A stretch of 64,000 bases of DNA from Alphaproteobacteria bacterium (GCA_047975765.1 JBKEEF010000003.1:3923-67922), one strand, 5' to 3'. Shown: positions 34,700-64,000, numbered from the stretch's first letter. A program made the numbers and translations. Notes: a model not told the origin generated them from the sequence alone.

Positions 34700-34890
34700 C
34701 CATAATATCTGTTGTGTTTTTAGGTGTGGGGAGGTGATCATTTTTAGACTTTAGAAGTTTTGATTATTTCTTTTAAGAGTGTTTATATTGTTAGGGTTGT
34801 GGAATTTTGGTGGCGATTTTTAAAATCGTCTTTTTTAGACTTTTTTGTATTTAAATGATAGTTTTGTGCGATTATTTTTAGACTCTTTTG
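34700..34890. mobile_element. Putative left end (attL-like) of the Mu-like prophage with three direct transposase-binding-like repeats
   Basis: Core TTTTTAGACT in direct orientation at 34741, 34832 and 34876, immediately 3' of the repressor gene; TGTTGTG at ~34710 is a candidate terminal TG. Confidence 0.45.
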
Positions 34891-34895
34891 AGTAT

Positions 34896-35594
34896 TTATT
34901 GTTTGCTTATGATCATTTTGAGTTTTCCAACAATGTTAAAATCCTCATCAAGAGAGAAACTCCAGCTTTCATATTCTGGGTTTATGGATTTTACCTTCAT
35001 TTCTTTGCCAATTCTTTGAAGTTGCTTAATATAACAATGCTTATCATAGTTAAAAGCATATATCCCATCATCTTCAAACTGGTCAACACTTCTGTCTATG
35101 ATGGCAATGTCGCCATTACTTAGCTTTGGCATCATAGAATCGCCTTTTATATATGCGCCAACGCAATGTGACGATAATTCAAAGGCTTCAACGAGTTCTT
35201 TTGATATGGTTATTGTGAATTGAATGTTTTCTTCATCTGCTAGCCAACCATTTCCGGCCGACAATGAAACGTCGTATATACTTATTTTTTGAGAACCTTT
35301 TCCAACTTTAACATTGTTTTTTATATATTTTTCACCTTTACCATAAACAAGCCAATCAAGATTGATGCCTTTATAATTAAGTAATTTTATTATTACATCT
35401 AATGTAGGGATATATTTTCCATTAAGATAATTTAAAAGAGTATCTTCAGACTTACCAGACACAATGGAAGCCTCTTTCCTATTTGAAAAATCATTATCCA
35501 ACACATCTCTTAGACGAGTTGAAACTTTTTCGTCGTAAGATTCAACTTTTTCTTTTTTTTCCATATCAAAAAACTTCCCTTGTTTTTCAAACAC
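34896..35594 (-). CDS. Phage repressor, HTH + S24 (LexA/cI-like) peptidase domain
   Basis: 232 aa; N-terminal HTH; C-terminal GDSMMP and KQL motifs of the S24 autopeptidase; divergent from ner. Confidence 0.75.
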   Translation of the reverse strand: MFEKQGKFFDMEKKEKVESYDEKVSTRLRDVLDNDFSNRKEASIVSGKSEDTLLNYLNGKYIPTLDVIIKLLNYKGINLDWLVYGKGEKYIKNNVKVGKGSQKISIYDVSLSAGNGWLADEENIQFTITISKELVEAFELSSHCVGAYIKGDSMMPKLSNGDIAIIDRSVDQFEDDGIYAFNYDKHCYIKQLQRIGKEMKVKSINPEYESWSFSLDEDFNIVGKLKMIISKQ

Positions 35595-35640
35595 TTAAAA
35601 CAAAATACGAGAAAAATAAAGATTCAACTAGAATTCTCTG

Positions 35641-35695
35641 TTGACACCCGACATTTCTCGGTGTAATGTTAGTTATAACGAAAGAGAAAACTAAC
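35641..35695 (+). promoter_or_regulatory. Early promoter (TTGACA-17-TAATGT) with inverted repeats (candidate operators)
   Basis: Promoter at 35641-35669 with imperfect IR CACCCGAcatttCTCGGTG in the spacer; second IR GTTAGTT-N14-AACTAAC at 35668-35695. Confidence 0.45.
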
Positions 35696-35755
35696 ACTTA
35701 ATAGTAATAAAAAACCAGCTGTAACTGGCGATTTATTTATAACAGAGGTTTTAAT

Positions 35756-36058
35756 ATGAATAAAAAGGATTTACATCCAGAATATATTAAGTATCTAGTA
35801 AGAAGCCAAGGAATGACCCTTGCGGCTCTTGCTAAAAAATACGGCTTCTCATCCTCTACAATTAAAACAGCTCTTAAAAAGCCAATGTTTTTTGGCGAAC
35901 AAATTATTGCGACGTTCTTGAATATTCATCCCATGAATTTGTGGCCTAGTAGATATGATGAAAAAGGAAACCCTTTACACCCACATGCCTCTGCTAATAA
36001 CCTTAAACCATTTTGCCCAAAAAATCAAGATGTTAAAAAAGGAGGTCAGAATGATTAA
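35756..36058 (+). CDS. ner: Ner-like DNA-binding protein (Mu Ner/Nlp family)
   Basis: DLHPEYIKYLVRSQGMTLAALAKKYGFSSSTIKTALKK...GEQIIATFLNIHPMNLWPSRY matches the Ner family signature. Confidence 0.75.
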   Translation: MNKKDLHPEYIKYLVRSQGMTLAALAKKYGFSSSTIKTALKKPMFFGEQIIATFLNIHPMNLWPSRYDEKGNPLHPHASANNLKPFCPKNQDVKKGGQND

Positions 36059-38141
36059 AAGATTTTATTCAATTCAAGAACTTCTAGAGCTTGGAATACC
36101 TAAGTTTCCAAAAACTCATTTTGGTATAATAAAAAAAGCAGAAAGAGAAAAATGGGTATTTCAAGAACGCAATAAATTGGGTGGCGGCCGAGAATATTCG
36201 TTAGATTCGCTTCCCGTTGAAGCTAAAGAATTTATTTTGAAAACTGAAATGGGAAACTCTCAAGAAGTTATAGAATATCAAAAGCAAGAATTGGCTAATC
36301 ACAGCAACGTTATTGATGTTAATGAACTCAAGCCTTATCAAAGAGAAGTTATTGATGCTAGAGCTATTATTTTAGCTGAAATTGATAGGTTGGCTCTTAT
36401 TTATGGTACGAACAAAGCTATTCAAAAATTTGTTGAACTTGTTTTTCAAGGTGATGTTCCTGAAGAAATAAAAAAAGCACTGGTCAAGGCTAATGCTAAA
36501 TCTGGCGGAAAACCTGTTAAAATTTCACGAGCAACAATTTTTAATTGGAAAAAAGCAATTAAAGAATCAGGAAGCATTGCGGGTCTTGCTCAAAAAGAAA
36601 TTAGAGAAGCAGACTGGCCAGCATGGGGTGATGCTTTGCTTAAATTGTGGCAAGTACCGGGCAAACCAAGCTTATCAACTGTCTTGGAAAATCTCGTTAA
36701 AATACTTCCTGTTTATATTGCTATTCCTAGTTACTCTGCAGCTCAAAGGTTTTTGAAAAAATTGCCGGCACAAGTCTTTAATAAAGGTCGTGTGGGTACT
36801 CGTGAGATGAAAAAATACAAGGCCTATGTTGCAAGAAGCACTGCAAATCTTTGGCCGACGGCAGTTTATACTGCGGATGGTCACACCTTTGATGCTGAGA
36901 TAGAAAACCCATTAACTGGAAAGCTTTTTAGACCAGAAATTACAACGGTTGTTGACGTATATACACGCAAGGTTGTTGGTTGGTCTCTTGATTTGAGTGA
37001 AAGAACAAATTCTGTATATATGGCTCTTACAAAATCAATCATTACTCATGGTATTCCTTGTATTTGGTATGTTGATAACGGAAAGGGTTTTAATAACCGT
37101 TATTTTGATGATGAGATGGTTGGCTTGTTGGCTCGTCTTAAAATTGAGAAAAAGAATTCAATCGCATATAACTCTCAAGCTCGTGGTATTGCTGAACGTA
37201 TCCACCAAACAATTTGGGTCAAAGCAGCAAAAAATTTAGCAACCTATATGGGGGCTGATATGGACACTCAAGCTAAGCAGGCTGTTTATAAAAAAACCAG
37301 AAAAGATATTAGCGAAAAAGGTCGTTCAGACTTGGTTATGAGTTGGGATAATTTTAAGGAATATTGTACAAAATGTGTTGAGATTTATAATAACACACCT
37401 CATAGATCACTGCCAGTGATTGTTGATCAGACTACCTATAAAAAACGTAATATGACACCTTCAGAGTTTTGGAACAAATCTGTTATGGATGGTTTTGAAG
37501 CTGAAAAATTGTCTCCTGCAGAAATCAAAGATCTGTATAGATACTATGAAGTTCGCAGAACAAATCGTGGGTTGGTTCAACTCTTTACAAATAGCTATTT
37601 TTCACTTGCTTTAGAACCTTATCATGGACGTGATGTTGCTGTTGCTTATGATATTCATGATGCTTCTAAAGTTTGGGTTCGTGAGCTTATGGAACTTGAT
37701 GGAGAGATGAAAGCAGGTAGACTTATTTGTGAAGCCATCTTTGAAGGCAACTCAAGAGAATATTTCCCAATTAGTAAGATTGAGTTTGAAAATCAAAAAC
37801 GTGCTGAGGGTCGTGTCAGAAGGCTTAAAGGTCACATGGAAGACGCACTAGATGAAACAAGAGCTAGATTCCTTGATCATCAAATTGATATTGAAGAAAT
37901 TACGACACCTAAAGAAGTTGAAAAACAAGAAAAACCACTTCTTGCAGAAAGCGACGAAAGACCGTTTTTTGCTGATGATGTGTCATGGGCTAAATGGCTT
38001 TTATCACATCCCGATAAAATTACAGATGGAGATGTTGAAAGCTTGATAGCTGCTTTGAAAAGCCCAGAAATGACAATGCTTTTTGAGGCAGAAGACATAA
38101 GCCTTTCTAATTTGAAAGAGCTTATAAAAAAAGCGGTCTAG
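36051..38141 (+). CDS. Mu A-like DDE transposase (start taken at MIKRFYSIQ, overlapping the ner stop)
   Basis: 696 aa; N-terminal winged-helix end-binding region (FYSIQELLELGIPKFPKTHFGIIKKAEREKW) and rve-like core (TADGHTFD...VGW); position after ner. Confidence 0.8.
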   Translation: MIKRFYSIQELLELGIPKFPKTHFGIIKKAEREKWVFQERNKLGGGREYSLDSLPVEAKEFILKTEMGNSQEVIEYQKQELANHSNVIDVNELKPYQREVIDARAIILAEIDRLALIYGTNKAIQKFVELVFQGDVPEEIKKALVKANAKSGGKPVKISRATIFNWKKAIKESGSIAGLAQKEIREADWPAWGDALLKLWQVPGKPSLSTVLENLVKILPVYIAIPSYSAAQRFLKKLPAQVFNKGRVGTREMKKYKAYVARSTANLWPTAVYTADGHTFDAEIENPLTGKLFRPEITTVVDVYTRKVVGWSLDLSERTNSVYMALTKSIITHGIPCIWYVDNGKGFNNRYFDDEMVGLLARLKIEKKNSIAYNSQARGIAERIHQTIWVKAAKNLATYMGADMDTQAKQAVYKKTRKDISEKGRSDLVMSWDNFKEYCTKCVEIYNNTPHRSLPVIVDQTTYKKRNMTPSEFWNKSVMDGFEAEKLSPAEIKDLYRYYEVRRTNRGLVQLFTNSYFSLALEPYHGRDVAVAYDIHDASKVWVRELMELDGEMKAGRLICEAIFEGNSREYFPISKIEFENQKRAEGRVRRLKGHMEDALDETRARFLDHQIDIEEITTPKEVEKQEKPLLAESDERPFFADDVSWAKWLLSHPDKITDGDVESLIAALKSPEMTMLFEAEDISLSNLKELIKKAV

Positions 38142-38200: not shown

Positions 38201-38959
38201 ATGAAAAACGAATTTGTAAAGACAGAAAATGTCAAAACCTTTTTAGAAGCTCTTACAAAGCTCTCTCTGAGAGGTGCTGGTGAAGCTTGTTTGATGGTTG
38301 TTGATGGACAACCAGGGTTAGGAAAAACTTGTGCCTTGAACTGGTGGGCAATCAGAAACGAATGTATTTATGTTAGAGCTAAAAAGGAATGGACACCAAA
38401 TTGGTTGATGAGAGATTTGTTAAATGCTCTTGGTGCAATTCCTGCGAACTCTTTTGAAAAAATGTTTCAGCAAACTCTACAACTTTTGGCTCAAAGATCC
38501 AGTGATGCTACGAGGGATGGAAAAGTTTTTGCTGTTATTATTGATGAGGTTGATTATATCTCTCGATCTTCAAAGATTTTGGAATCTTTAAGAGATCTGT
38601 CAGATTTCTTAGAAATTCCGTTTGTTTTTGTGGGTATGGGGGTTATTCGTCATAACCTTTCAAAATTTCCTCAGATTGCTAGTCGTATTGGTCAATATGT
38701 TGAATTTAAGCCATTGAGCTTAGAGGATACAAAAAACTTGATGAACACACTTTGCGATAAAAAGGTTGAAGAAAAGCTCATTGCCTTCACTCATAAAGTT
38801 ACTGCTGGTTATGTTAGAGAAATTAAAGAGGCTATTGCTTCAATTGATAGATTTTCAGCTCGTAATAGAAATATTGACACCGTTACTTTTGCTCAAATGG
38901 AAGGTCAAGTTTTGATGAACGACCGTAAGAATTCTAAACCTATCTTAGTTAGAGGGTAA
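38201..38959 (+). CDS. Mu B-like transposition ATPase (AAA+)
   Basis: 252 aa; Walker A GQPGLGKT, Walker B IIDEVD; directly after the transposase. Confidence 0.75.
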   Translation: MKNEFVKTENVKTFLEALTKLSLRGAGEACLMVVDGQPGLGKTCALNWWAIRNECIYVRAKKEWTPNWLMRDLLNALGAIPANSFEKMFQQTLQLLAQRSSDATRDGKVFAVIIDEVDYISRSSKILESLRDLSDFLEIPFVFVGMGVIRHNLSKFPQIASRIGQYVEFKPLSLEDTKNLMNTLCDKKVEEKLIAFTHKVTAGYVREIKEAIASIDRFSARNRNIDTVTFAQMEGQVLMNDRKNSKPILVRG

Positions 38960-38963
38960 ATAG

Positions 38964-39560
38964 ATGAATAATACGGCAAAGAATATTAATAAAGTTTTTG
39001 CTTTGGTTAGCGAACACCCTATCACACTTGATGAGTTGGATAGCAAAACTACTTTATCTCGTCATTGCATAATTATTGCGATGTCAAAACTTTGTAGCTC
39101 TGGATTTGCTGTGAGACTTGAAAACGGCATTTATAAACTATCAAAAAAAGGGAAAAGTCTAAAAACTAGCGAAGAAAAGAATAAAGCACTCTACTTCAAA
39201 ACGGGTTGCCCAGCAGGAACAAAAATCATTAATCGCGCTCGTGATAAAAATGGATTTAGGGATAGAATTTGGAAAATTGTTCGGTTGCAAAGAAAATTCA
39301 CAGTTAATGATGTCGTTGCAATGGTTTCTGAAGGAAATGAAAAAGACCCAAGAAGTAATGTTTATAAATATTTACAAGCTTTAATAAAAATTGGTTATGT
39401 TTTTGAATTGCCATGCAAGGCTAAAAATGACAGCAAGCTTACTTCAAATGGATTTAAAGTATTTTCCCTTGTTAAAGATACAGGACATATTGCCCCTATT
39501 CTAAAGCTTCGCCGAAAAGAAATGTATGATCCTAACACAGGGGAGACTCTGTCATGGTAA
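38964..39560 (+). CDS. Hypothetical early protein with two winged-helix-like segments
   Basis: 198 aa; position in the Mu semi-essential early region. Confidence 0.35.
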   Translation: MNNTAKNINKVFALVSEHPITLDELDSKTTLSRHCIIIAMSKLCSSGFAVRLENGIYKLSKKGKSLKTSEEKNKALYFKTGCPAGTKIINRARDKNGFRDRIWKIVRLQRKFTVNDVVAMVSEGNEKDPRSNVYKYLQALIKIGYVFELPCKAKNDSKLTSNGFKVFSLVKDTGHIAPILKLRRKEMYDPNTGETLSW

Positions 39561-39901
39561 GTCGTGCTTATAAGATTGCAAAAGATTTTGCAGATAAAAA
39601 CACTATCGGTGTATTAGCCAAAAAACTCGGATATGCAAGAAGCTCCACAAACTTATACCTCTTAGGGCAATATAACGGCAATATTAAATACATTGAAAAC
39701 AAAATATTGACTGTTTTCATCAATAGAATTCATTGCCCATACAGAGATAAGGTTATTTCAAAAGAAGATTGCGAAGATACTTGTAAAAGCACAAACACGA
39801 GTAGCCCTGCTCTATTTAAGATGCAGCAATTTTGCAAAACTTGTCCTTTTCAAAACACCACAAAAGAAGAATTTAAAAAACAATTTACAGGAGAAAACTA
39901 A
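39554..39901 (+). CDS. Hypothetical early protein, HTH-like N-terminus + Cys-rich zinc-ribbon-like C-terminus
   Basis: 115 aa; GVLAKKLGYARSSTNLYL HTH-like segment; C...CEDTC...CKTC cysteine cluster. Confidence 0.35.
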   Translation: MVSRAYKIAKDFADKNTIGVLAKKLGYARSSTNLYLLGQYNGNIKYIENKILTVFINRIHCPYRDKVISKEDCEDTCKSTNTSSPALFKMQQFCKTCPFQNTTKEEFKKQFTGEN

Positions 39902-40173: not shown

Positions 40174-40794
40174 ATGGAAAAAGAAATTGATGGAAAAATT
40201 TATTTAGAAGATGGTAAGGGAAATTTGACCCCTAAGTCTCAAGTTAAACCAATTGATTTGTTGAGAGATGATGTTGTCTCAGGATTGATTGAAAAAGCAA
40301 AAGAAACTTCTGCTCGTATTAAGGAATTTAAAAAACATGCTTTTGAAGAAATTTCAAAATTTATAGAAATTTCGGCAGAACAATACCAAGTTAAGCTTGG
40401 CGGAAAGAAAGGCAATGTAACTCTCTTTTCTTATGATGGACGTTTCAAAATTGAAAGAAGATGTGCTGAAAAAATAAATTTCGGAGAGCAACTTCATGCT
40501 GCAAAAGCTTTGATTGATGAATGTTTGAGAGAGTGGTCAGCTGGGGCAAATGATAAGCTTATCACTATTGTTAATCAAGCTTTTCAAGTTGATGAAAAAG
40601 GCAATATTTCAACTGCAGAAATTTTAGGGCTTAGAAAACATAATTTTACAGAACCAAAATGGCAAGAAGCAATGAAGGCAATTAGTGATGCAATCACAAT
40701 CGTTTCAAGCAAGGACTATGTCAGACTTTACGAAAGAGTTGGGGAAACTGATTTTTATAGCCCGATTTCATTGGATGTTGCTGCAGATTTTTAG
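40174..40794 (+). CDS. Mu-like prophage early protein (DUF3164-like)
   Basis: 206 aa; size and position match the conserved DUF3164 family of Mu-like prophages; assignment by resemblance only. Confidence 0.35.
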   Translation: MEKEIDGKIYLEDGKGNLTPKSQVKPIDLLRDDVVSGLIEKAKETSARIKEFKKHAFEEISKFIEISAEQYQVKLGGKKGNVTLFSYDGRFKIERRCAEKINFGEQLHAAKALIDECLREWSAGANDKLITIVNQAFQVDEKGNISTAEILGLRKHNFTEPKWQEAMKAISDAITIVSSKDYVRLYERVGETDFYSPISLDVAADF

Positions 40795-41173: not shown

Positions 41174-41569
41174 ATGGTAAACAGCTTAATCGCAAAAATT
41201 CATATCGCAAAAAATGAACTTGGTCTTGACGATGAAACTTATCGTTCATTGATTTTTCAGGCTACTGGAAAAAAGAGCTGCACTGAGTGTAATCAAAAAC
41301 AACTTGGTAAAATTTTGGAGCTTATGAAAAGTAAGGGCTGGAAACCATCTAAGCCTAAAAAAGCCTTTAGAAACTCCTCATCAGCATTAATTAGAAAAAT
41401 CTATGGTTTATGGTCAGAACTTCATTCTGTTGGCAAGATTTCATCGGCTGATAAAACTTCTCTTGATAAGTTTGTTAGTAAACACACCGAAGTTGATAGT
41501 GCTCAATGGTTAGATAATTCTCAAGCTGTAAAAATCATAGAAATGCTTAAACAGTGGCTTGCGAGGTAA
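41174..41569 (+). CDS. GemA-like protein (Mu gp16, DUF1018)
   Basis: LIAKIHIAKNELGLDDETYRSLIFQATGKKS...ELMKSKGWK resembles the GemA N-terminus; lies directly before mor. Confidence 0.6.
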   Translation: MVNSLIAKIHIAKNELGLDDETYRSLIFQATGKKSCTECNQKQLGKILELMKSKGWKPSKPKKAFRNSSSALIRKIYGLWSELHSVGKISSADKTSLDKFVSKHTEVDSAQWLDNSQAVKIIEMLKQWLAR

Positions 41570-41964
41570 TGATGAATAGTGAAATTAAAAGATATTTTAT
41601 AGATGAAGTTTCTGACTTAACATCAGTTAATTTCGCTCAAAAATTAGTTGATAATTTCAAAGGGCAAAGAATTTATATACCAACCAAAACCCCTCATGAA
41701 AAACATTTTTTATCTAAAGTTTTTAATGAGCAAGAAATTGATGTTTTGATTGAGAATTTCGGGGGTAACCATATTGATGTTCCGATGAGATTGGTTAATG
41801 AAGCTCCTTTTCGCAAAGCTAAGATTTTAGAACTTAAGTCAAAAAACTATGGTGTTCAAGAAATCGCTGGTGAAGTTAATTGCACATGGAGATGGGTTCA
41901 AAAGATTTTGAGCAACCATAAAAAAAAGCAAGAAATTAATAAAGATCAAGGGTCTTTGTTTTAA
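41569..41964 (+). CDS. mor: Mor/C-family middle-operon transcriptional activator
   Basis: ~131 aa; C-terminal HTH (NYGVQEIAGEVNCTWRWVQKIL); TAATGATG overlap with gemA. Confidence 0.6.
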   Translation: MMNSEIKRYFIDEVSDLTSVNFAQKLVDNFKGQRIYIPTKTPHEKHFLSKVFNEQEIDVLIENFGGNHIDVPMRLVNEAPFRKAKILELKSKNYGVQEIAGEVNCTWRWVQKILSNHKKKQEINKDQGSLF

Positions 41965-43532: not shown

Positions 43533-43762
43533 TGTGTTTTATTGAAGTTACATCTTTTAGTGATGAGGGAAGACACCTTATAAAAATTAAAGATATTGTT
43601 TGTGTCTCAGAGAAAGAAATTCATTGTTTACGTAAGGAGGATAGTAAGAATCAAAAAATTTATATTTGTTATATAACTTTATCTTCTGGTGAATTAATAA
43701 AGGTTAATGAAAATTATGGGGTTATAACTCAAAAAATATATGGGGCATTAAAAAATGTCTGA
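43529..43762 (+). CDS. Hypothetical phage protein
   Basis: 77 aa; ATGA overlap. Confidence 0.25.
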   Translation: MMCFIEVTSFSDEGRHLIKIKDIVCVSEKEIHCLRKEDSKNQKIYICYITLSSGELIKVNENYGVITQKIYGALKNV

Positions 43763-43943
43763 AAAACTAAAAATCAAAGATGGTAAAGTTGGAAAAAATG
43801 TCGGCTTTGAAAGGATTAGACGGATTACGGGTTATTTGGTTGGCCGTTTAGACCGTTTTAATAACGCAAAAAGGGCTGAGGTTGAGGACAGAGTTAAACA
43901 TTCTATAAATGAGGAGAAAAGAAGTGAAAAAAGTTTTAAGTGA
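43755..43943 (+). CDS. Hypothetical phage protein
   Basis: 62 aa. Confidence 0.25.
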   Translation: MSEKLKIKDGKVGKNVGFERIRRITGYLVGRLDRFNNAKRAEVEDRVKHSINEEKRSEKSFK

Positions 43944-44109: not shown

Positions 44110-44140
44110 TAAAAAAGCCGGTTAATTACCGGCTTTTTCT
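44108..44140. terminator. Bidirectional terminator (AAAAAAGCCGGT-TAAT-ACCGGCTTTTT)
   Basis: Perfect hairpin between convergent genes. Confidence 0.6.
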
Positions 44141-45539: not shown

Positions 45540-45738
45540 TGTAGCTGATATTGCGACTGAGCAAATTGAACTCAATAAAGAATTTTCTATAAGAAATTTT
45601 AGAAAAAATCTTATGCATCACAAAAAATCACAAAAATTTTGTTTGGAATGTGGAGAAGAAATTCCCTTAGCTCGTCGTAATGCTGTGGCGGGCTGTGAAT
45701 ATTGTATTGATTGTCAGCTTGAAATTGAAAAGGAGTGA
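45532..45738 (+). CDS. TraR/DksA-family C4 zinc-finger protein
   Basis: CLECGEEIPLARR...CEYCIDCQ C4 arrangement. Confidence 0.6.
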   Translation: MVDVADIATEQIELNKEFSIRNFRKNLMHHKKSQKFCLECGEEIPLARRNAVAGCEYCIDCQLEIEKE

Positions 45739-54193: not shown

Positions 54194-54196
54194 TAA

Positions 54197-54592: not shown

Positions 54593-54593
54593 G

Positions 54594-55019
54594 ATGGCTG
54601 GAGTGTTTCTTAAATATGAAGTTCAAGGCTTAAAGAGACTTCAGGAGTATGCAAAAAAACTTTCTCAATTCGGTCCAGAAAAGAAAAAAGAGCTAAATGC
54701 GGAAATATCAAGTTTTTTGGTTCGCCAAACGCAGGATAGGTTTGAAAGTAAGTTAACCCCAACGGGTCGTGCTTGGACAAGTTCTTTATATCGAAGTGGT
54801 GATCTCTTTGGATCTATTGCAGACAGTTATAATGAGCATGAAGCAATCGCCGGGACAAATATTGAATATGCAGCAATTCACCAATTTGGAGGAGAAGCTG
54901 GAAGAAACAAATCAGTAAAAATTGCAGCAAATCCATTCTTTGGACTTAGCACGGAAGATGAAGAAGAAATTGTTAATGTGGTTCATGATTTTTTGGAGAG
55001 AGAGGTTTTAGATGCTTAG
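54594..55019 (+). CDS. Virion morphogenesis protein (Mu G-like)
   Basis: 141 aa; resembles the Mu G / tail-completion family. Confidence 0.5.
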   Translation: MAGVFLKYEVQGLKRLQEYAKKLSQFGPEKKKELNAEISSFLVRQTQDRFESKLTPTGRAWTSSLYRSGDLFGSIADSYNEHEAIAGTNIEYAAIHQFGGEAGRNKSVKIAANPFFGLSTEDEEEIVNVVHDFLEREVLDA

Positions 55020-55605
55020 TCAAATTGAGCAGTCAATTTTAGACTTATTGAAAAGCTATAATACCGAAGAAAAGCTCGGATATAAGATTGATAAGATTGA
55101 CTCTTACAAAGGTGAATTGAAGAACTTCAAAGAATTAATAAGCAATTCATCAAGTGCAGTTTTACTTTCTTTCTATAAAAAAAAGCCAGTTGATAGATGG
55201 AATGTTGAAGCAACATATATTGCTCTTGTTTATTTCAGGGGGTTTACAAGAAACCAGAGAGATACACGGTTTGGTAAAGATGGCGGGGTTGGTGCTTATC
55301 AGATTTTATCGGACATAGAAATAATTTTAGAAGATGAAAGCTTAGGTTTTCTTGTTGAGCCAATTGAAATTGTTGAAACTAAAACCTTGCTACATGACAG
55401 TGTTTCAAACTTTCATACGGCACTTTATGAAATTGAGTTCACGTTAACCTACAAAAAGAATTTCTTCATTTCTTCAGAACAGAAAAAAGAATTGAAAAAA
55501 TTCAAAGAACTGTCGACGACTTGGGAGATTGGAGAAAATACCCAGTTTGAGACATTAGTTAAATTACCGCAAACAGAGAAGGAGAATTCAGATGGCGGAG
55601 AATAA
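55012..55605 (+). CDS. Hypothetical phage protein (Mu gp37-like position)
   Basis: 197 aa. Confidence 0.3.
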   Translation: MLSQIEQSILDLLKSYNTEEKLGYKIDKIDSYKGELKNFKELISNSSSAVLLSFYKKKPVDRWNVEATYIALVYFRGFTRNQRDTRFGKDGGVGAYQILSDIEIILEDESLGFLVEPIEIVETKTLLHDSVSNFHTALYEIEFTLTYKKNFFISSEQKKELKKFKELSTTWEIGENTQFETLVKLPQTEKENSDGGE

Positions 55606-55840
55606 ATTTTTTGTTAAGCCTGCTCGCGAAAATGGGTATGTCTTAAAGCCGAATGGTTTGAGACTAAAACCTTCTGGCGAGTGGATATATGGCGATGTTG
55701 AGTTTTGGCATCGCAGACTTAAAGATGGTGATGTTGTGGGTGATACAAAAGCAAAAGCGCCTGCAGAAACAAAAGCAGAGGCAACAACTCCTGCGCCAGC
55801 ATCTTCTGTTTCAACTTCTAAAAAAGAAGGAATTAAATAA
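55592..55840 (+). CDS. Hypothetical small phage protein
   Basis: 82 aa. Confidence 0.3.
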   Translation: MAENKFFVKPARENGYVLKPNGLRLKPSGEWIYGDVEFWHRRLKDGDVVGDTKAKAPAETKAEATTPAPASSVSTSKKEGIK

Positions 55841-55842: not shown

Positions 55843-57297
55843 ATGGTTGATTTTAAGGAAATTCCAAACGGATATAAAGTTCCGGGTGTTTATCAAGAAG
55901 TTGATAACTCTCTCGCAAATATCGGTTTGACAGGAAAAGAAAGTGTTGGCTTGATTATTGGTCAAAAACTTTCAACAGGAACAGGCGAATTTAACACTTG
56001 CTATCTAGCTGAAAATATTAATAGAGTTGCTGAGCTTGCTGGGGTTGGTTCTGACGTTCATAGAATGGCAGAAAAGTTTGAAAAAAATAATAAATACAAT
56101 GCGTTCAAAGTGATTTTTGTTGAACAAACTGAAGGTGTTGCAGCAACCTACACAATTGAAGCAACGGCGACAGATGTTCAAAATGGTAGTGCTGACCTTT
56201 TGTTGGCTGGCACACTTATTCAGTCTGTTGTTTACAAGGGTCAAACTGCTTCAGAAATTTTGGAAGCGCTTGTTGATGCTATTAATGAAGAAACAATGAT
56301 TCCTGTGACTGCCGCACTTGTTGAAGGAAAGATTGTATTAACGGCAAAACATAAAGGTTTAGCTGGGAACAATGTCGACATACAATTCAACTACTACAAC
56401 AATCAGAAAACACCTAAAGGGTTGACTTTTACAGTTGCTCAAACTGTAGAAGGTGTCGGAAATGCTTCTATTGCAGATGTTTTGGCGGCACTTACTCCGG
56501 AATATTTCACAGATGGTGTAACATCATACACAGATGAACCAAATTTACTAAAATTGAGAAGTTTTCTAAATGACCGATTTGGCGCTATGGTTCAAAATGA
56601 AGGTAATTTTCATATTTGTATCAATGGTACTCATTCTGAGCTTTTGACTTTAGCGGCGACCTTGAATTGCCCTCATATTAACTTGATTGAGAACTATAAA
56701 ACACCAAATATGCCTGAAGAAAGAGCGGCTCGTGTTGCTGGTATTGTTGCTTTCAAATCACAACAAGATCCTGCGCGTCAATATCGTACGGCTGTGTTGG
56801 TTGGAGATTTGCCTTCTAAGACACCATTTGACGACAAGGAAAGAAATTTGCTTCTTAAAGGTGGTGTTTCTACGGTTGTGACAAATGCTTCTGGTAATGT
56901 AGCTATTGAAAGAGTTGTTACGACTTATCGTAAAAATACGCTTGGGGTTTATGATGAAAGTTATTTTGATTTAACAATCATTAAAACAATCATCTATCTT
57001 CGCTGGTCTTATGTGAACTGGTTCTTGACGAAATATCCAGATTATAAGTTGGCTAAAAATGGTCACCCTATCGGTGTTGGTCAAGCAATCGTTACGCCTG
57101 ATGTGATTGAGTCAGAAGCTATCTCATGGGCAAATATGATGCTTAAAGCAGGTCTTATTGAAGATATTGAGGGCTTTGTTGAAGCAATTCATACAGAAAT
57201 CAATGCTTCTGACCCTGACCGTGTTGACCAAATCATCAGACCAGACATCATAAACAACTTTATGATTTTGGCTTCTAAAATGCAATTTAAGAGATAA
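55843..57297 (+). CDS. Contractile tail sheath protein (Mu L-like)
   Basis: 484 aa; sheath-family N-terminus and size; followed by the tube gene. Confidence 0.7.
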   Translation: MVDFKEIPNGYKVPGVYQEVDNSLANIGLTGKESVGLIIGQKLSTGTGEFNTCYLAENINRVAELAGVGSDVHRMAEKFEKNNKYNAFKVIFVEQTEGVAATYTIEATATDVQNGSADLLLAGTLIQSVVYKGQTASEILEALVDAINEETMIPVTAALVEGKIVLTAKHKGLAGNNVDIQFNYYNNQKTPKGLTFTVAQTVEGVGNASIADVLAALTPEYFTDGVTSYTDEPNLLKLRSFLNDRFGAMVQNEGNFHICINGTHSELLTLAATLNCPHINLIENYKTPNMPEERAARVAGIVAFKSQQDPARQYRTAVLVGDLPSKTPFDDKERNLLLKGGVSTVVTNASGNVAIERVVTTYRKNTLGVYDESYFDLTIIKTIIYLRWSYVNWFLTKYPDYKLAKNGHPIGVGQAIVTPDVIESEAISWANMMLKAGLIEDIEGFVEAIHTEINASDPDRVDQIIRPDIINNFMILASKMQFKR

Positions 57298-57308: not shown

Positions 57309-57674
57309 ATGTCAAAAAGTCCAAATGAAAGATTGGGTTATTGCGATGTCAAAATCAATGGTACAGATTATGAACTTCGTGAAGTAGTTCGTAAACTTCC
57401 TGGTATTCGTCGTGATGATATTGATGAGGGCAATGCTTTTGCTCCTGTCAAAGAAGGTGGCTTTATCAAAGGTAAAGCTTATTTGAAACGTGGACAAAGT
57501 ATTCAAAAAATTAATGAGTTGGACAATGCTACGGTTTCAACCACAGATAATCTTGGTAATGCAATCACTTTTGCAAATGGTTGGGTTAAAAACAATCCAG
57601 AAGTTTCTAAAGATGGTTTCGACCTTGAAATTGGTGTCGCTTATGGCGATTGTACGGAGGTGACAGGTGGCTAA
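57309..57674 (+). CDS. Tail tube protein (Mu M-like)
   Basis: 121 aa directly after the sheath gene. Confidence 0.6.
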   Translation: MSKSPNERLGYCDVKINGTDYELREVVRKLPGIRRDDIDEGNAFAPVKEGGFIKGKAYLKRGQSIQKINELDNATVSTTDNLGNAITFANGWVKNNPEVSKDGFDLEIGVAYGDCTEVTGG

Positions 57675-58017
57675 TATTATCCTATTGAACAAAGGTTTGA
57701 AAGCAAATGGAGAGCCTCAGTTAGATGTTGAATTTAAAGATTTGACAGCAGGTGACGTAATGGCCGCTCGTGAACAAGCAGAGAAAGCATATTTTATGCC
57801 AGATGGATCTGTTCAGGTAGCAACCTCACCAAATCTTGCCGGAAAATATATTCTTTTGAAAAGAATTGTCAGAATTGGCACAATCTCGCCAGTTACTGAA
57901 CAGCATATTTCTATGTTGTCATATGAAGACTATGACCACTTGGTTGATGCAATCAATATCTTTGATAAGGCTTCTAAAGAGGTAGAACAGCAGGGGCGAG
58001 ATTATACGTCACTATGA
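57667..58017 (+). CDS. Tail assembly chaperone-like protein (possible frameshift extension to 58159)
   Basis: 116 aa between the tube and tape measure genes; an open alternative frame continues to 58159. Confidence 0.4.
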   Translation: MANIILLNKGLKANGEPQLDVEFKDLTAGDVMAAREQAEKAYFMPDGSVQVATSPNLAGKYILLKRIVRIGTISPVTEQHISMLSYEDYDHLVDAINIFDKASKEVEQQGRDYTSL

Positions 58018-58151: not shown

Positions 58152-60008
58152 ATGGTTAAAAAACTGGAAACATCAGTCATTTTGAATTTAGGCGGCAATC
58201 TTGCACAGATGGCAGCCAAATATGGTAATTCAATGGCTAAAATGTCAAATGTTGGTGTTTCCAGTTTTGCCAAGCTTTCTAAAGGCATCCAGTGGTCTGG
58301 GAATCAAATTGACAGATTGGCCAATCGATATACTGGAGCTATTTCTGCCGTTGCTGGCACGGTAGCTGTTCGTAATGTTGCTAATCTTCAAGAACGATTG
58401 GAAAGATTAGGCATTATCGCTGATAAGTCTTCAGATGAAATGAAGAAAATTAATGACAGAATTTATCAAGTTTCTCAAATGCGAAACATCAATGTTGCGC
58501 CAGACCAACTGACTGCAGCAATTGAAAAAATGGCGGCAATGACTGGTGATGTTGATTTTGCTGTTGCTAATATGGAAAATTTAGGCATGGCAATTTCTGC
58601 AACTGGTGCAGCTGGTGAAGACATCGGTGCCATGGTTGGAAATATGTTCCAGAAATTTAATATTAAATCTGCAGATGAAATCCTTCAGGTCTTAGATATT
58701 TTTGCAAACCAGGCGAATGAAGGTTCGTTTGAGCTAAAAGACCTTGCAACGCAAGGCGAAAGAATTATGGCCGCATACGCCACACTTGGCCGTAGTGGTG
58801 CGATTGCTAACCGAGAAATGGGTGCTTTAATGCAAATTTCTCGTATGGGAACAGGATCGGCAGAGCAAGCCGCAACTGCTTTTGAAGCTATGGTTATGAC
58901 TTTTTCAGATCCAGCTAAAATAAAGCTCTTAAAATCTGCAGGGATTGCAGTTAAGGATAATGCTGGTCAGATGCGAGCAATTCCAGATATTTTGAAAGAT
59001 ATTATCGTTAAAACTAAAGGTGATGCAACACAGCTCAATCAAGTTTTTGATAGATTTGCTTTCCGTGGCATCTCCACCCTTGCAATTGAGTTTCAAAATG
59101 CCATGAAACAAGGAAAATCGGTTGATGAGGCTTTTTCCAGCTTTCAAAAATTTTATAATGTTCAAGCTTCAGGCCAAACAATTATGAGAGATAGCAAAAG
59201 GATGGCAGATACATTCAACGCGTCTGTTGTTAGTTTAAAAACTGCCGTGATGCAATTTTCACAAACTCATTTGACAGCTCCAATTGAAAAGATGGCAAAA
59301 GCTCTAAATTCGTTAGATCCTGTCCGAGTTCAAAAATATTTTGATTATGCTGTTAAAGGCGCTGCTGGTCTGGCAACAATATGGGCGGCAGGTAAAGCTT
59401 TAGATTATGGTGGCCGTGCAGTTAGTTTCTTCAGAAATAGAAAAAAAGGTGGGGCGCTTGGGGGTGTTGGTGATGGGCTAATGGCTGGAGCAACACCTGT
59501 TTATGTTGTCAATATGGGTGCCGCTGGTCTTGGTGGTGGTCTTGCAGATGTTGCTGGACTTGGTGGTGGAAAATATGGTGCTTTGCTCAAAAAGGCGGGC
59601 ATTGTTGGTGCAGTTGCTTATGGTGCTTATGAAGTTGGTGGCGGAATTGCAGCGCTTTCTTCTGGCCAATATGAAGATGCCGGCGAAAAACTTGGTGGTG
59701 CGATTGGTATGGCACTTGGGGCTTTTGGTGGCCCATTTGGCATGATTATTGGCAACCAAGTCGGCAAATTTGCAGGCGGTTGGCTTGGTCGTTGGGTTCA
59801 AGACACGAAAAAAGAAACTGAAGCGGCCGACAAAGCGAGAGAGCAAAGAATTAAAAATTTTGAAAAAAACAAGAACCAAACAGTGATTTTGAAAAATGAA
59901 AACAATTTCAAGGTGATTTCTGATGAAAAAGGGGTGCGTGTGATTGATGCGAACCCAGTTCAACAAACTAAAATCCCTCTTGATACTGGCTATACAAGGA
60001 TTTACTAA
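58152..60008 (+). CDS. Tail tape measure protein
   Basis: 618 aa; helical N-terminal region, Gly-rich C-terminal repeats, position after tube/chaperone. Confidence 0.7.
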   Translation: MVKKLETSVILNLGGNLAQMAAKYGNSMAKMSNVGVSSFAKLSKGIQWSGNQIDRLANRYTGAISAVAGTVAVRNVANLQERLERLGIIADKSSDEMKKINDRIYQVSQMRNINVAPDQLTAAIEKMAAMTGDVDFAVANMENLGMAISATGAAGEDIGAMVGNMFQKFNIKSADEILQVLDIFANQANEGSFELKDLATQGERIMAAYATLGRSGAIANREMGALMQISRMGTGSAEQAATAFEAMVMTFSDPAKIKLLKSAGIAVKDNAGQMRAIPDILKDIIVKTKGDATQLNQVFDRFAFRGISTLAIEFQNAMKQGKSVDEAFSSFQKFYNVQASGQTIMRDSKRMADTFNASVVSLKTAVMQFSQTHLTAPIEKMAKALNSLDPVRVQKYFDYAVKGAAGLATIWAAGKALDYGGRAVSFFRNRKKGGALGGVGDGLMAGATPVYVVNMGAAGLGGGLADVAGLGGGKYGALLKKAGIVGAVAYGAYEVGGGIAALSSGQYEDAGEKLGGAIGMALGAFGGPFGMIIGNQVGKFAGGWLGRWVQDTKKETEAADKAREQRIKNFEKNKNQTVILKNENNFKVISDEKGVRVIDANPVQQTKIPLDTGYTRIY

Positions 60009-60011: not shown

Positions 60012-61157
60012 ATGTTTGTAAATGAAGTAAAATATAATGGCATCTTATTTTGGACTGAAGACCACGATTGGGGACGTTCTGTTCATGAAGCTGAGTCTGA
60101 ACCTGTCTTAGGACAAGTTGAAGCTGAAGGAAGTAAGGAATATAAACTAAATCCTTATGATATTGTCATTAATGGCTATGTTTATGGTGCTGATGCTGAA
60201 GAAAAAATTGCACAACTTAATGAATATTTAGGCTCTGAACAACCAGGATGGTTGGAGCTTCCTCGTTTGGGCAAAATCAAGGTCAAGTTCAAAGGGCAAG
60301 GTTTTCGCTTTAAGTTCGAAGGCAGAAAAGAATGCTACGGCAAAATCACTCTTGAGCTAGAAAAATATACTGACAGTGGTTTGAAGATTGTTCAGGTTCA
60401 AGAAGATACGGCTAGTCAAATTGATGATATTTTAACTGAAGCTGAAGCGAGCTTTTTAGAAAAGTTTGATGAAAACTTTTCTTTAGATGGTTTTCCGGAA
60501 TTTGTCAAAATGGGAAGTTTTGATACTTTCACCTCAATTTCAAGCAAGATTTCAAAACTATCTTCAGCGAACCTTGTTTCATCAGTGCTTGACCCAATCA
60601 CTGGTTCTGTTTCCATTTTAACCTCTGGGTCTGATGGAATTTTAGGAACATTTAAGTCCTATTTGAACTTTGATGGCTCAAGCTATAAGAATCAAATTAA
60701 AGCTTTGTTGGGAATTGCCAAGTCAAAATCAAGCTATAAGGCAGCAACGAGTTCGAAGAACGATTTGCAAATTCTTTCAAATTCTGTGGCTCTGGATGAT
60801 TTGAGCAAAGAAGTTGCCATCAGCAACATTGCTGACATTGTGGCAAAGAATGATGTCTTTGAAACAACAACTGAAGCAAATGATTTTATTGATGAAATCA
60901 CAGAGGTTGCGAACGATTTTACGGCTGATGTTGACGATTATGCAGTTCAAACAAACATCTTCAAAATGGTTAATGTGATTGTGAATAAGGTTAAATTTGA
61001 TAAAAATTTAGCTATTTCTAAGAGAATTAAGATTAATCAAGTCATGCCTGCTTCTGTCGTTGCTTATCAAAATGCGGTTGATAGCGATAAGCTTGTTCGA
61101 TTGAACAAGGTTAAACATCCTTTATTCGTTCCGGCTGGAACGGAATTGGAGGCCTAA
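60012..61157 (+). CDS. DNA circulation protein (Mu N-like)
   Basis: 381 aa; position after the tape measure gene and N-terminal resemblance. Confidence 0.5.
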   Translation: MFVNEVKYNGILFWTEDHDWGRSVHEAESEPVLGQVEAEGSKEYKLNPYDIVINGYVYGADAEEKIAQLNEYLGSEQPGWLELPRLGKIKVKFKGQGFRFKFEGRKECYGKITLELEKYTDSGLKIVQVQEDTASQIDDILTEAEASFLEKFDENFSLDGFPEFVKMGSFDTFTSISSKISKLSSANLVSSVLDPITGSVSILTSGSDGILGTFKSYLNFDGSSYKNQIKALLGIAKSKSSYKAATSSKNDLQILSNSVALDDLSKEVAISNIADIVAKNDVFETTTEANDFIDEITEVANDFTADVDDYAVQTNIFKMVNVIVNKVKFDKNLAISKRIKINQVMPASVVAYQNAVDSDKLVRLNKVKHPLFVPAGTELEA

Positions 61158-62084
61158 ATGGAACTTAGTCTAAAAACGAACGGTTTTGAAATTTCGCTTG
61201 ATAACTTGATGTATTTTTCTTCAGTTGAGCATTTGGCCAGATTTTGCCAAATTCAATTTTTGAATAAAAATGCTGAAGATTTAAGCTTTCTTAAATCAAC
61301 ATTAAAAGACGATTTAACGGCAAGCTTGTTTTTAGATAGAAACAAGGTTTTTTCGGGCTTGGTAAAAGTTTCTTCTGATTTTGTCGGTCAAAAACCTTTA
61401 ATTTATCTTCAGGTTATCTCGCCGATTTATAAATATTGTGGCAAACAAATTGGTCAAGGCAAGCACTATATTGACCAAAAAGCGAGCGAGATTATCAAAG
61501 CACTTTGCCCAGACATTGAGCTTGAAATTGAAAAAGATGTTCAACTGAAGGATTTTATTTCGTTCTCTTCGGAATCTGTTGACCAGATAATTGCAAGACT
61601 GGCAGTTCAATCAAACCTTTTGATTTATTCTTCTGCTGAAGGAAGTCTAAAATTGACCGAGTACAAATATTCTTCAAGAGCTGTTGGGGTTTTGGAAGAA
61701 AACATTCTCACAATTGGCGCCATTGAAAAAGACGAAGAAGGCTTGGAGATTATAGGCCAGAACTGTCTGGATGATAGTTTGAGCTTAGATGAAATTATCA
61801 AACCTCGTTTGACCATTGCTGGCAAAAATAAGAGATGCCTCGTTGTTGATGATGTTTCTCCATCAACTTTGAATAAGCTTTATCGCAACAAAAAAGAAAT
61901 CCCTCTCAAAATCAAAGATTGGTTTGACCATGAAGGTGATTTGCTCGAAATAAATGAGATTGTTAGAGTCGTTCGTCCGTGGATTGGGGTTGATGAAAAC
62001 TGCTTAATTCAAAGTTTGAGCTTAAATCTTTCTGGCAGAGGTTCTTTTTCTGCAGATCTAGTCGTGGAGGCAAAAAATGTTTAA
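61158..62084 (+). CDS. Tail/baseplate protein (Mu P-like)
   Basis: 308 aa. Confidence 0.5.
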   Translation: MELSLKTNGFEISLDNLMYFSSVEHLARFCQIQFLNKNAEDLSFLKSTLKDDLTASLFLDRNKVFSGLVKVSSDFVGQKPLIYLQVISPIYKYCGKQIGQGKHYIDQKASEIIKALCPDIELEIEKDVQLKDFISFSSESVDQIIARLAVQSNLLIYSSAEGSLKLTEYKYSSRAVGVLEENILTIGAIEKDEEGLEIIGQNCLDDSLSLDEIIKPRLTIAGKNKRCLVVDDVSPSTLNKLYRNKKEIPLKIKDWFDHEGDLLEINEIVRVVRPWIGVDENCLIQSLSLNLSGRGSFSADLVVEAKNV

Positions 62085-62697
62085 CGAAGAACAAATTAGG
62101 CAAATTGCTGAAATCTGCAAGAAGGCAACTAAGCCTTTAGACGACAGACTTAAAAATCTTGTTCGTTTGGGTGCTGTGAAACTCGTAAAAGGTGGCAAGA
62201 CACAAAGCCTTCAGTTGGAAACAATGGGTGCTGAAGTTTTGGATAATGCTAAATTTTTAGAACCTTATGGGCTCACGGTTAGTCCACTCCCTGGTTCTGA
62301 GAGCTTGGTCGTGAATGTCACTGGCAATCCTTTTAACAATGTGGTTTTGGTGGTTGGTAATCGTGAAGTTCGCCTGAAAGATTTAGGAGCTGGACAAGTC
62401 GCTTTATATGATGCGAGCGGAACAAATATTCTTCTAGGAAATGATAACTCAATAACTGTTACGGCTTCAAAGAAAGTTAAAATCATAACCAAAGCAGCTG
62501 AAATTGAGGCTGAAACGGCAAAAATAACAGCTCAAACGTTCACGGCTGAAGCGACAACTGCGAACATAAAAGCAACTGCAATCAATCTCGCTGAAGGCGG
62601 GTTGCCTGTTGCGAGGTTGGGTGATGAGGTGGAAGTTGATCCTGTAAGTCATAAAGGAAAAATCACTACGGCTTCAACGATTGTAAAGGCGGGGTAA
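62077..62697 (+). CDS. Baseplate assembly/spike protein (Mu gp45, GpV-like)
   Basis: 206 aa; beta-rich N-terminus. Confidence 0.5.
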   Translation: MFNEEQIRQIAEICKKATKPLDDRLKNLVRLGAVKLVKGGKTQSLQLETMGAEVLDNAKFLEPYGLTVSPLPGSESLVVNVTGNPFNNVVLVVGNREVRLKDLGAGQVALYDASGTNILLGNDNSITVTASKKVKIITKAAEIEAETAKITAQTFTAEATTANIKATAINLAEGGLPVARLGDEVEVDPVSHKGKITTASTIVKAG

Positions 62698-62698
62698 G

Positions 62699-63103
62699 AT
62701 GAAAAAGATTGTTGATATAAGAGACATAGACTTAACGGCTATCAAAGACGACAAACTGAAGGCGATTTTAATTTGCATTTACACCAATGCCAAAGTTGAT
62801 GAAGTTGAGCTTCCTTTTGCAGGTAGCCCTAACGGGGGTTGGTGGGGTGATGCTTTTGAAATCAAGGTTGCGGGTAGAAAGATAAAATACACCTTAGGGT
62901 CTAAGCTCTGGACATTAATGACTGGCAAGTTGAATGATGAAATTGCTGAAGAAGTTAGGGGTTATGTCAAAACATCTTTAAGTGTCCTGGTCTCTGCCAA
63001 AGTCATCTCTGCGCCAACTGTGGTGGTTGAAAGAATTGATAATCGTGTCAATCTTTTGCTTATTTTTGAAAATGAAACAATATCTTTAGAAGGTTGGGAA
63101 TAA
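62699..63103 (+). CDS. Baseplate wedge protein (gp46, GpW/gp25-like)
   Basis: 134 aa. Confidence 0.5.
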   Translation: MKKIVDIRDIDLTAIKDDKLKAILICIYTNAKVDEVELPFAGSPNGGWWGDAFEIKVAGRKIKYTLGSKLWTLMTGKLNDEIAEEVRGYVKTSLSVLVSAKVISAPTVVVERIDNRVNLLLIFENETISLEGWE

Positions 63104-64000
63104 TGGCTTTTGTAGTAGATGACTTAAAAACTTTAATCACAAATATTGAGCTTGCTTATGAAAACAAGATGAAAGATAAGATGCCGATTGCTGAACAAAA
63201 AGTCAATGCGCGTATCTTGGCGAATGCTTGTAATGCACTCAATCATTTCATTGCTTATAATGCTCAGCAGATCTTGCCAACAACGGCCGACTATGAACAT
63301 TTAGTTGAGCATTGTGCTGCTAAAGGCATTTATCCAAAGCGAAAAACAAAAGCGAGCGGTCGTTATAAGGTAAAAGGCACAGTTGGTGCGACGGTGCTTG
63401 TTGGCCAAGTTCTGAATCGTAAAAAAGACAATTTAGAATATATCGTTGATAGTTCAGTGATTTTGTCAGCTGAAGAGCAAGAAATTCAAATAACTTGTAA
63501 AACTGCGGGTGTGATTGGAAATTGCACGGCTGGTGAAAAAATGAGCTTTGCTCAAGCCATTGCGGGTGTCGAAACTGAAGGTGAAGTTGTGTCATTTGGT
63601 GCTGGCGCTGATGATGAAAGTCCAGAGGAATTATTAGCTAGATATCTTCAGGTTGTGCAAAATCCTGACAATGGGGGAAATCCACAAGACTATGTTCGTT
63701 GGGCTTTGCAGGTTGAAGGTGTTTCTAAAGCTTGGGCATATCCCCACGAAGCTGGCACAGGTAGTATAGTAATTAGAATTTGGACACCATCTGGACCAGC
63801 TGATGCCGAACTAAGGGAAAAAGTAAAAGAATATATTAAAACCGTTTGTCCAGCAGATGTTAAAAGAATTGTTGTCTTAACTCTAATTCAAGAATCTGTT
63901 GATGTTGTCGCAACGATTGTTCCTAACACACCAGAAGTTCATGAAGCTGCCGAAGGCGAATTAAAATCATTGTTCTTGCGTAAAATTGAACCAGGAATGA
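63103..64000 (+). CDS. Baseplate J-like protein (gp47), N-terminal ~299 aa; runs off the window
   Basis: TAATG overlap start; translation MAFVVDDLKTL... stays open to the window edge; resembles the Baseplate_J family. Not in the ORF track because it is truncated. Confidence 0.55.
   Translation, partial: MAFVVDDLKTLITNIELAYENKMKDKMPIAEQKVNARILANACNALNHFIAYNAQQILPTTADYEHLVEHCAAKGIYPKRKTKASGRYKVKGTVGATVLVGQVLNRKKDNLEYIVDSSVILSAEEQEIQITCKTAGVIGNCTAGEKMSFAQAIAGVETEGEVVSFGAGADDESPEELLARYLQVVQNPDNGGNPQDYVRWALQVEGVSKAWAYPHEAGTGSIVIRIWTPSGPADAELREKVKEYIKTVCPADVKRIVVLTLIQESVDVVATIVPNTPEVHEAAEGELKSLFLRKIEPGM

Follow-up and report, generated by a model that had tools for sequence, protein, structure and literature searches.

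Textbooks present phage Mu as the model of near-random transposition, with a B protein that is regarded as capturing targets non-specifically. Insertion directed to tRNA genes is known from other mobile elements: Tn7-like and type V-K and I-B CRISPR-associated transposons (CASTs) insert in one orientation downstream of conserved essential genes, including tRNA genes, which offer a safe site, and the yeast retrotransposons Ty3 and Ty1 and the Dictyostelium elements TRE5 and TRE3 insert beside many tRNA genes, a safe haven in compact genomes, with RNA polymerase III factors being recognised. Here, we analysed a stretch of 64,000 nucleotides from an Alphaproteobacteria bacterium assembly (GCA_047975765.1 JBKEEF010000003.1:3923-67922; the whole stretch is hereafter called the window), which carries a Mu-type prophage from position 34725 onwards. 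The element is a temperate Mu-type transposable myovirus with a complete-looking gene set, integrated into the chromosome of a low-GC alphaproteobacterium that has not been cultured. In gene content and ends, it is an ordinary prophage; what stands out is the targeting, with phages of its clade inserting non-randomly and in a single orientation behind tRNA genes. The explanation that best covers the whole, and that we hold with good confidence, combines a Mu-type prophage, clade-level targeting of tRNA genes and an altered left junction.

The clade has features in common with both groups of tRNA-associated elements. As in Tn7-like elements and CASTs, a DDE transposase is paired with a TnsC/TniB-like AAA+ ATPase, and insertion is oriented and downstream of a tRNA gene; unlike in those systems, no TniQ/TnsD, TnsA or Cas was detected here, the distance from the tRNA gene varies from 31 to 364 bp where Tn7/Tn5053-like elements insert at a fixed spacing to a recognised site, and the element is a 34.5-kb phage. 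With Ty3/Ty1 and TRE5/TRE3, the clade shares an insertion window beside many different tRNA genes. Those elements, however, are eukaryotic and RNA-mediated, and bacteria lack dedicated RNA polymerase III machinery; therefore, the cue here must differ.

Departures from uniform target use have also been described for Mu and its relatives. Canonical Mu is reported to avoid the DNA of mature tRNAs and to sample the pre-tRNA leader and trailer (PMC7350765). The Citromicrobium phage phiA integrates within a 40-bp zone (n=24), while its replicative transposition is chromosome-wide (PMC12486242). Both phiA and phiB resemble the present clade in being alphaproteobacterial and Mu-like, with a 5-bp duplication and with integrative transposition confined to a narrow zone or a few hotspots (PMC12486242), but the zone they use is within a single gene for a hypothetical protein, whereas here many tRNA genes in many hosts are used in a fixed orientation. 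Our literature search retrieved no account of a Mu-like phage directing its integration to tRNA genes, within an incomplete collection in which this amounts to absence of evidence.

The window prophage has the gene order of Mu, from repressor, ner, A and B through gemA, mor, lysis genes, portal, F, I and T to sheath, tube, tape measure, N, P and gp45-48. It also shares the TG...CA termini, the layout of repeats at the ends, the 5-bp duplication (seen here in relatives) and a DNA-modification gene at the right end. Pfam and PHROGs thereby bear out the Mu-like transposable prophage, and its gene order, proposed in an initial annotation made from the sequence alone. Differences from Mu include an S24/LexA-like repressor in place of Mu c, a 252-amino acid B protein of TniB/AAA_22 type rather than of the Mu B family, the absence of an invertible G segment and gin, no match to Gam, C5 and Dam methylases where Mu has mom, and spanins at the right end; moreover, lysogenic insertions cluster behind tRNA genes, whereas those of Mu are near-random. 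The best matches among deposited phages are RcapMu (Rhodobacter) and RR1-B (Rhizobium), which have the same early module architecture, although identities are low (A, 34-35%; B, 42-48%; winged-helix protein, 27-40%). RcapMu is described as a siphovirus (PMC8601537), in contrast to the Mu-type contractile tail genes found here.

Oriented insertion of the clade behind tRNA genes

Right junctions were gathered from metagenome contigs by alignment of the Dam-type methylase, giving 35 independent insertions in two end-sequence subfamilies. Of these, 28 (about 80%) lie 31-364 bp downstream of the 3' end of a tRNA gene. Subfamily 1, which includes the window phage and has GTCTAAAA end repeats, accounts for 19 such cases among 21 insertions, at 31-118 bp with one at 364 bp, behind genes for tRNA-Phe, Arg-ACG, Lys-TTT, Lys-CTT and Trp. 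In subfamily 2, with AAAACCATTTTGC end repeats, 9 of 14 insertions are near a tRNA gene (Glu-TTC, Glu-CTC, Gly-CCC or Pro-GGG), at 67-322 bp. At least nine tRNA species are used, with varying insertion positions. In 28/28 cases, the tRNA is on the complementary strand and its 3' end points towards the right end of the phage (uniform orientation, p ~4e-9); in all subfamily-1 tRNA cases, the phage lies 0-85 nt past the intrinsic terminator of the tRNA. Three insertions fall inside 55 bp behind one tRNA-Phe gene, and such differing positions identify independent events as opposed to one inherited insertion. No tRNA was present within 400 bp of the left ends examined.

As a control, we took 54 IMG/VR contigs whose Dam homologues are more distant; any tRNA gene lies downstream in only 4 of them, 1 of the 4 being a clade member. 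Under the resulting background of ~6% in more distant Dam-bearing phages, the observed 28/35 has p ~5e-29. Apart from a weak 5-bp consensus, Mu is barely selective in its targets, a behaviour that the 28 insertions behind tRNA genes do not follow. The random Mu-type integration assumed in the initial annotation, by which any gene could have been disrupted, is thus contradicted for the clade, and no host gene is visibly split by the insertion in the window. The two subfamilies have non-overlapping sets of tRNA genes. Their disjointness suggests some sequence specificity, although host differences could also explain it.

For the window phage, the 5.2 kb beyond the window were recovered from a near-identical Logan contig of the same sample (SRR30067233_2159, 35,959 bp), which was found via proteins from a homology search. 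One stretch of 14,473 nt is identical between contig and window, while in a second stretch, within a locus of the contig denoted L003 below, 2 of 10,898 nt differ. Both single-base differences (window 63591 and 63595) lie inside gp47 and, as the metagenome-assembled genome (MAG) and the Logan contig derive from the same run, point to the presence of another variant or copy of the phage in the sample. The right end, correctly predicted to lie outside the window and expected within ~40 kb, is at L003 16132, equivalent to window position 69234 and 34.5 kb from the left end. The prophage spans 34,510 bp, of which the left 29.3 kb (85%) correspond to window 34725-64000. Its right flank contains a terminator followed by tRNA-Trp, 43 bp from the right end and on the opposite strand; in one relative, tRNA-Phe occupies the equivalent position. 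The right junction of the window copy fits the clade rule.

We placed the left end at 34725, rather than at 34700 as initially annotated, because similarity to five distinct relatives (seven loci) starts exactly at TGTGGGG/TGTAGGG (TGTGGGG... in the window), with upstream DNA that is unrelated among the five. The same comparison led us to reject 34710 (TGTTG). The left terminus, TGTGGGGAGGTGATCATTTTTAGAC (34725-34749, + strand), includes candidate site L1, and a repeat search revealed direct repeats of the form T(C/T)(A/T)TTTTTAGACT(T/C)T at 34738, 34829 and 34872 (34738-34886, + strand), which are candidates for L1, L2 and L3. Their spacings of 91 and 43 nt belong to a three-site layout that relatives also show. 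At the right end, which reads ...GAGCAACA / ...GCCGAGCAACA, four GTCTAAAAA repeats with spacings of 22, 20 and 69 nt mirror the left sites, and its reverse complement shares with the left end a spacing of TGT + 13 nt + TTTTTAGAC. In relatives, 23 complete right ends have a last GTCTAAAA repeat followed by a constant 17 nt ending in ACA. TG...CA termini with several candidate transposase-site repeats at each end are features of Mu-like phages, and the repeats follow the L1--L2L3 / R1R2R3 pattern of Mu.

Target duplications were found in two relatives. The pentamer CAGAA is present at both ends of one IMG/VR contig, and its empty site, rebuilt minus one copy, occurs uninterrupted in two other metagenomes; GATTG is duplicated in a second relative, represented by a pair of contigs from one sample. 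A generic scan of IMG/VR with GTCTAAAAA-N10-14-GTCTAAAAA returned mostly chance matches and one useful locus.

The left junction of the window copy

The right junction of the window copy is canonical, and the left junction is not its partner. In the same register, TTAGG on the left faces TTTAT on the right; therefore, the copy is not a simple single insertion as assembled. The initial annotation had anticipated a right end terminating in ...CA together with a 5-bp target duplication: the terminus is as expected, while the duplication, found in clade relatives, is absent from this copy. An adjacent deletion, or a recombination event involving two copies, probably altered the left junction once the phage had inserted; alternatively, flanks of two copies were joined during assembly. 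The missing duplication flags a phage-mediated rearrangement or a mis-join at 34725 in the MAG.

We regard it as a strong contender, just short of an even chance, that the copy is rearranged and possibly immobilised, its original left flank having been lost by adjacent deletion or two-copy recombination. Such a copy might have ceased to be a simple inducible prophage with one clean site. In relatives, the same end register yields perfect duplications, yet here there is none. In addition, a short minus-strand open reading frame (ORF) at 34605-34703 (region 34601-34724) is open across the left junction, as if 5'-truncated, and neither a tRNA nor a T-arm-like sequence lies to the left of the phage. 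However, the phage ends and core genes are intact, the loss of a duplication alone does not disable transposition, and Mu-type elements do not need their flanks.

Rather less probable is that the left and right junctions come from two copies or strains collapsed by short-read assembly. In its favour, the two differences in gp47 point to more than one variant in the sample, and the Logan contig ends ~1 kb to the left and 0.4 kb to the right of the phage. Against this, the two assemblies are concordant over >1 kb across the left junction, and neither is interrupted at the phage ends, although a 34.5-kb repeat that had two different sets of flanks should cause such breaks.

Proposed target choice and candidate targeting machinery

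On balance, we lean slightly towards the view that directed integrative transposition behind tRNA genes evolved in a clade of mostly gut Alphaproteobacteria phages, with a fixed orientation and subfamily-specific tRNA sets, and without TniQ/TnsD, Cas or an integrase. The bias would then reflect target choice at lysogenisation rather than survival. A targeting step at lysogenisation would recognise tRNA genes and would most likely involve a phage factor acting together with the B ATPase. By position, the single candidate for a selector is the winged-helix protein whose gene adjoins B; we consider this 198-amino acid protein a candidate target selector or regulator, and naming it the selector would be speculation. 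Lytic replicative transposition, by analogy with the Citromicrobium Mu-like phages, would probably be genome-wide.

Several observations weigh against the overall explanation or parts of it. No TniQ/TnsD-like selector or other recognisable targeting protein was detected in the scanned ORFs using Pfam, PHROGs and a fold search. RcapMu and RR1-B also have the A-B-winged-helix module. The preference is not absolute, with 7/35 clade insertions not near a tRNA. Between the window phage and the relatives behind the statistics, identity in MuA and Dam is only ~65%; the behaviour of the window phage itself is seen at one junction, and its ends lack the 5-bp duplication. Finally, inducibility, replicative transposition and headful packaging are predicted from homology alone.

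It is nevertheless improbable that insertion is random, as in Mu, with the tRNA pattern arising from the persistence of harmless lysogens at safe sites. Such selection predicts what is seen in subfamily 1, where insertions all lie past the tRNA terminator and none in the tRNA or hairpin. The 7/35 insertions located elsewhere, several of them in apparent coding DNA, also fit it, and selection could favour the orientation that keeps tRNA read-through out of the early operon. However, only a small part of neutral intergenic DNA lies downstream of tRNA genes, and 80% of the insertions are nevertheless found there, against only about 6% in the more distant Dam-bearing phages. Three independent insertions within 55 bp and a single orientation in 28/28 cases likewise speak against selection alone.

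That the tRNA gene is phage cargo, or that these phages recombine site-specifically at tRNA genes, where many ordinary temperate phages and islands reside, can practically be discounted: no integrase or Cas family was matched among the scanned ORFs and no integrase among the called genes beyond the window, neither a tyrosine or serine integrase nor an att core overlapping the tRNA 3' end was detected, the junctions lie at variable positions 31-364 bp past different tRNAs and spacers, and the reconstructed empty site, with its 5-bp duplication and no att core, refutes it.

Two further ideas on the cue were rejected. In one, the phage right end mimics the tRNA 3' half, with the T-arm acting as a transposase pseudo-end. 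The right end shares TCGGCGGGG with tRNA-Arg and GGGATT with tRNA-Lys; we rejected the idea because the ends of subfamily 2 (AAAACCATTTTGC) are unrelated and yet tRNA-associated, and because the window has no T-arm-like sequence. Generic terminators were rejected as the target since terminators of protein genes are far commoner, yet 28/28 targeted sites lie behind tRNAs.

If insertion is indeed directed, the clade would offer a compact system for studying how a MuA/B-type machine gains target specificity. It would represent convergence with the homing of Tn7 and CASTs and with retrotransposons that target tRNA genes in eukaryotes, would be the equivalent of Ty3/TRE targeting in a bacterial DDE transposon and might provide a protein-only route for the directed insertion of large DNA. 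It would also matter for annotation, where tRNA-adjacent prophages are usually presumed to be integrase users.

Gene content and genomic setting

From 34896 to the window end, the ORFs form a single unbroken rightward series plus a leftward repressor, and no gene appears broken. This agrees with the earlier statement that core genes are full length: all ORFs are contiguous and uninterrupted, and MuA has 696 amino acids compared with 698-724 in its closest homologues. GC content is 30-41% along the element versus 28-40% in the chromosome flanks. MuA relatives at 64-66% identity come from IMG/VR metagenome contigs and human-gut metagenome assemblies. In references with one genome per species, the nearest transposases are 53% and then 44-47% identical and belong to uncultured alphaproteobacterial MAGs from mouse and human gut, in keeping with the low-GC alphaproteobacterial host initially proposed; in deposited phages, MuA identity is at most 38%. 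Exact-sequence look-ups of gp46, the 299-amino acid flank gene, the long MuA ORF, gp45, P, N and a GNAT gene gave no match, nor did a gp47 fragment against the genome collection or MuA alone against viral sequences, alignments being needed as queries. An Rfam scan gave no match within the window and only the tRNA beyond it.

The left host flank carries rplK-rplA-rplJ-rplL-rpoB-rpoC, on the basis of ORF sizes and the Logan annotation, and also encodes desulfoferrodoxin and FMN reductase, a combination that would fit an anaerobic host. The host gene adjoining the left end (33661-34560, + strand) encodes a 299-amino acid protein with a weak PG_binding_1 match, in which a lysozyme-like motif, YLDTRNNITVGGG, was read by eye; GC in this region is very low (28%).

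Lysogeny would be kept by an S24 (LexA/CI-type) repressor transcribed leftward from the left end (34896-35594, - strand; Pfam Peptidase_S24 3e-20, HTH_3/HTH_19), which the Logan annotation calls as 222 amino acids (34896-35564). The translation shows an Ala-Gly site, a GDSM serine and an IKQL lysine, and RecA-stimulated self-cleavage would lead to SOS-type phage induction. The divergent regulatory region between repressor and early operon (35595-35755), read directly from the sequence, contains a putative rightward promoter, TTGACA-17-TAATGT, and a putative inverted repeat, TGTTAGTT...AACTAACA.

The rightward early operon (this and all following genes within the window are on the + strand unless stated) would supply the transposition proteins. 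A Ner-like DNA-binding protein (35756-36058; Pfam HTH_35 1.4e-22) is followed by the 696-amino acid MuA-type DDE transposase (36051-38141; long ORF from 35955), which has the end-binding and C-terminal domains of its family (Pfam HTH_Tnp_Mu_1, rve/DDE_2 and Mu-transpos_C) and residues D276, D342 and E382 that are invariant across 16 homologues. Adjoining A is the B-like AAA+ transposition ATPase of TniB/AAA_22 type (38201-38959, 252 amino acids; Pfam AAA_22 2e-13, TniB 6e-8), which lies outside the Mu B Pfam family and is 48% identical to its RR1-B counterpart and 42% to RcapMu 'transposition protein B'. Directly after B comes the tandem winged-helix protein (38964-39560, 198 amino acids; phrog_2030), for which an AlphaFold2 model (predicted local distance difference test score, pLDDT, 81) has two winged-helix domains and a fold search against PDB gave generic winged-helix matches only; homologues occur in RR1-B and RcapMu. 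The transposase would be expected to bind the three left and three or four right repeats and to cut at TG...CA, with strand joining to the target at a 5-bp stagger, consistent with the duplications in two relatives.

The early region continues with a 115-amino acid Cys-rich protein (39554-39901; phrog_2119 1.6e-14, function unknown), a DUF3164 protein (40174-40794; Pfam DUF3164 2e-78), GemA (41174-41569; Pfam GemA 1.5e-32) and a Mor-family middle/late transcription activator called at 130 amino acids (41572-41964; Pfam Mor 2.4e-9), which would next activate later genes. On the Mu model, the genome would then replicate by transposition, and headful packaging would fill a Mu-type head that bears a contractile tail.

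Further along, a 62-amino acid stand-alone peptide (43755-43943) matches the glycyl-radical C terminus of anaerobic ribonucleotide reductase (Pfam NRDD 30.6 bits, cut-off 26.2). The match covers only profile positions 533-562 of 562, the last 30, and includes ...RIRRITGYLVG.... By analogy with GrcA for pyruvate formate-lyase, the peptide could be a 'spare part' for oxygen-damaged NrdD; our literature search found no description of a phage-encoded NrdD C-terminal peptide of this kind. A 225-amino acid gene of unknown function (44122-44799, - strand), the only reverse gene besides the repressor, has no match in Pfam, PHROGs or PADLOC and is likely a moron, an accessory gene with its own transcription. 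It occupies a low-GC pocket with middle genes on one side and lysis genes on the other. PADLOC gave no match to the genes without assigned function. The endolysin (45012-45539; Pfam GH108 5e-25, PG_binding_3 1.7e-8) is followed by a 68-amino acid DksA/TraR-type zinc-finger protein (45532-45738; Pfam zf-dskA_traR 3e-10).

The Mu-type morphogenesis module, including portal, F, protease and scaffold, T, gp36/37 and the genes from sheath to gp48, is present. It opens with a small terminase-like DUF1804 protein (45962-46468; Pfam DUF1804 7e-52), a 564-amino acid large terminase (46458-48152; phrog_38 5e-117), a Mu-type portal (48164-49591; Pfam Portal_Mu 3e-90) and a Mu F-like head protein with a C-terminal PBECR2 fusion (49584-50858; Pfam Phage_Mu_F 1e-15, PBECR2 6e-27), whose Barnase/EndoU/colicin-like nuclease domain may act as an effector delivered by the virion. 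An AT-rich gap of 424 nt (50859-51282) with no plausible ORF and no Rfam match separates Mu F from the head protease. Next are the head protease (51283-52344; phrog_976 4.5e-96), scaffold (52545-52877; phrog_673 8e-19), major head protein (52890-53813; phrog_1005 3e-81) and, by Pfam, the head-tail joining genes for DUF7210, Mu gp36, Phage_tail_S (G-like), Mu gp37 and DUF2635 (53825-55840).

Pfam also identifies the tail genes: sheath (55843-57297; Phage_sheath_1), tube (57309-57674; Tail_tube), gp41 chaperone (57667-58017; Gp41_Mu), tape measure (58152-60008; PhageMin_Tail), an N-like baseplate protein (60012-61157; DNA_circ_N, weak, 0.0057), P (61158-62084; GpP_4th), gp45 (62077-62697; Phage_Mu_Gp45), gp46 (62699-63103; GP46) and gp47/Baseplate_J (63103 onward; Baseplate_J 1.9e-47). 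The last is cut by the window end and has 344 amino acids on the Logan contig, where the rest of gp47 is followed by gp48, three or four tail-fibre genes, spanins and two methylases.

The spanin pair, read from the sequence, lies after the tail-fibre genes at L003 13940-14325, far from the endolysin at 45012. The inner-membrane spanin (77 amino acids) combines a transmembrane segment with a coiled coil and has no Pfam match, and an overlapping lipoprotein ORF has the lipobox ...LASC. The two right-end methylases, a 215-amino acid C5-methylase-like protein and a 274-amino acid Dam-type methylase, would protect phage DNA. Upstream of their genes is a conserved leader of ~135 nt (L003 14340-14480, ~window-equivalent 67440-67580), of which 19 unique versions, including those of relatives, were compared. 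It contains a GC hairpin with two compensatory pairs and a helix in which CTTCCT is paired with the Shine-Dalgarno AGGAAG, and the start codon is enclosed by a long-range GATTCT/AGAGTC helix, accounting for the conservation of the first codons (MRTES). The leader has no Rfam match and looks like an element of translational control of the Mu com/mom kind. The C5-methylase gene of the window phage is inserted between this leader and dam.

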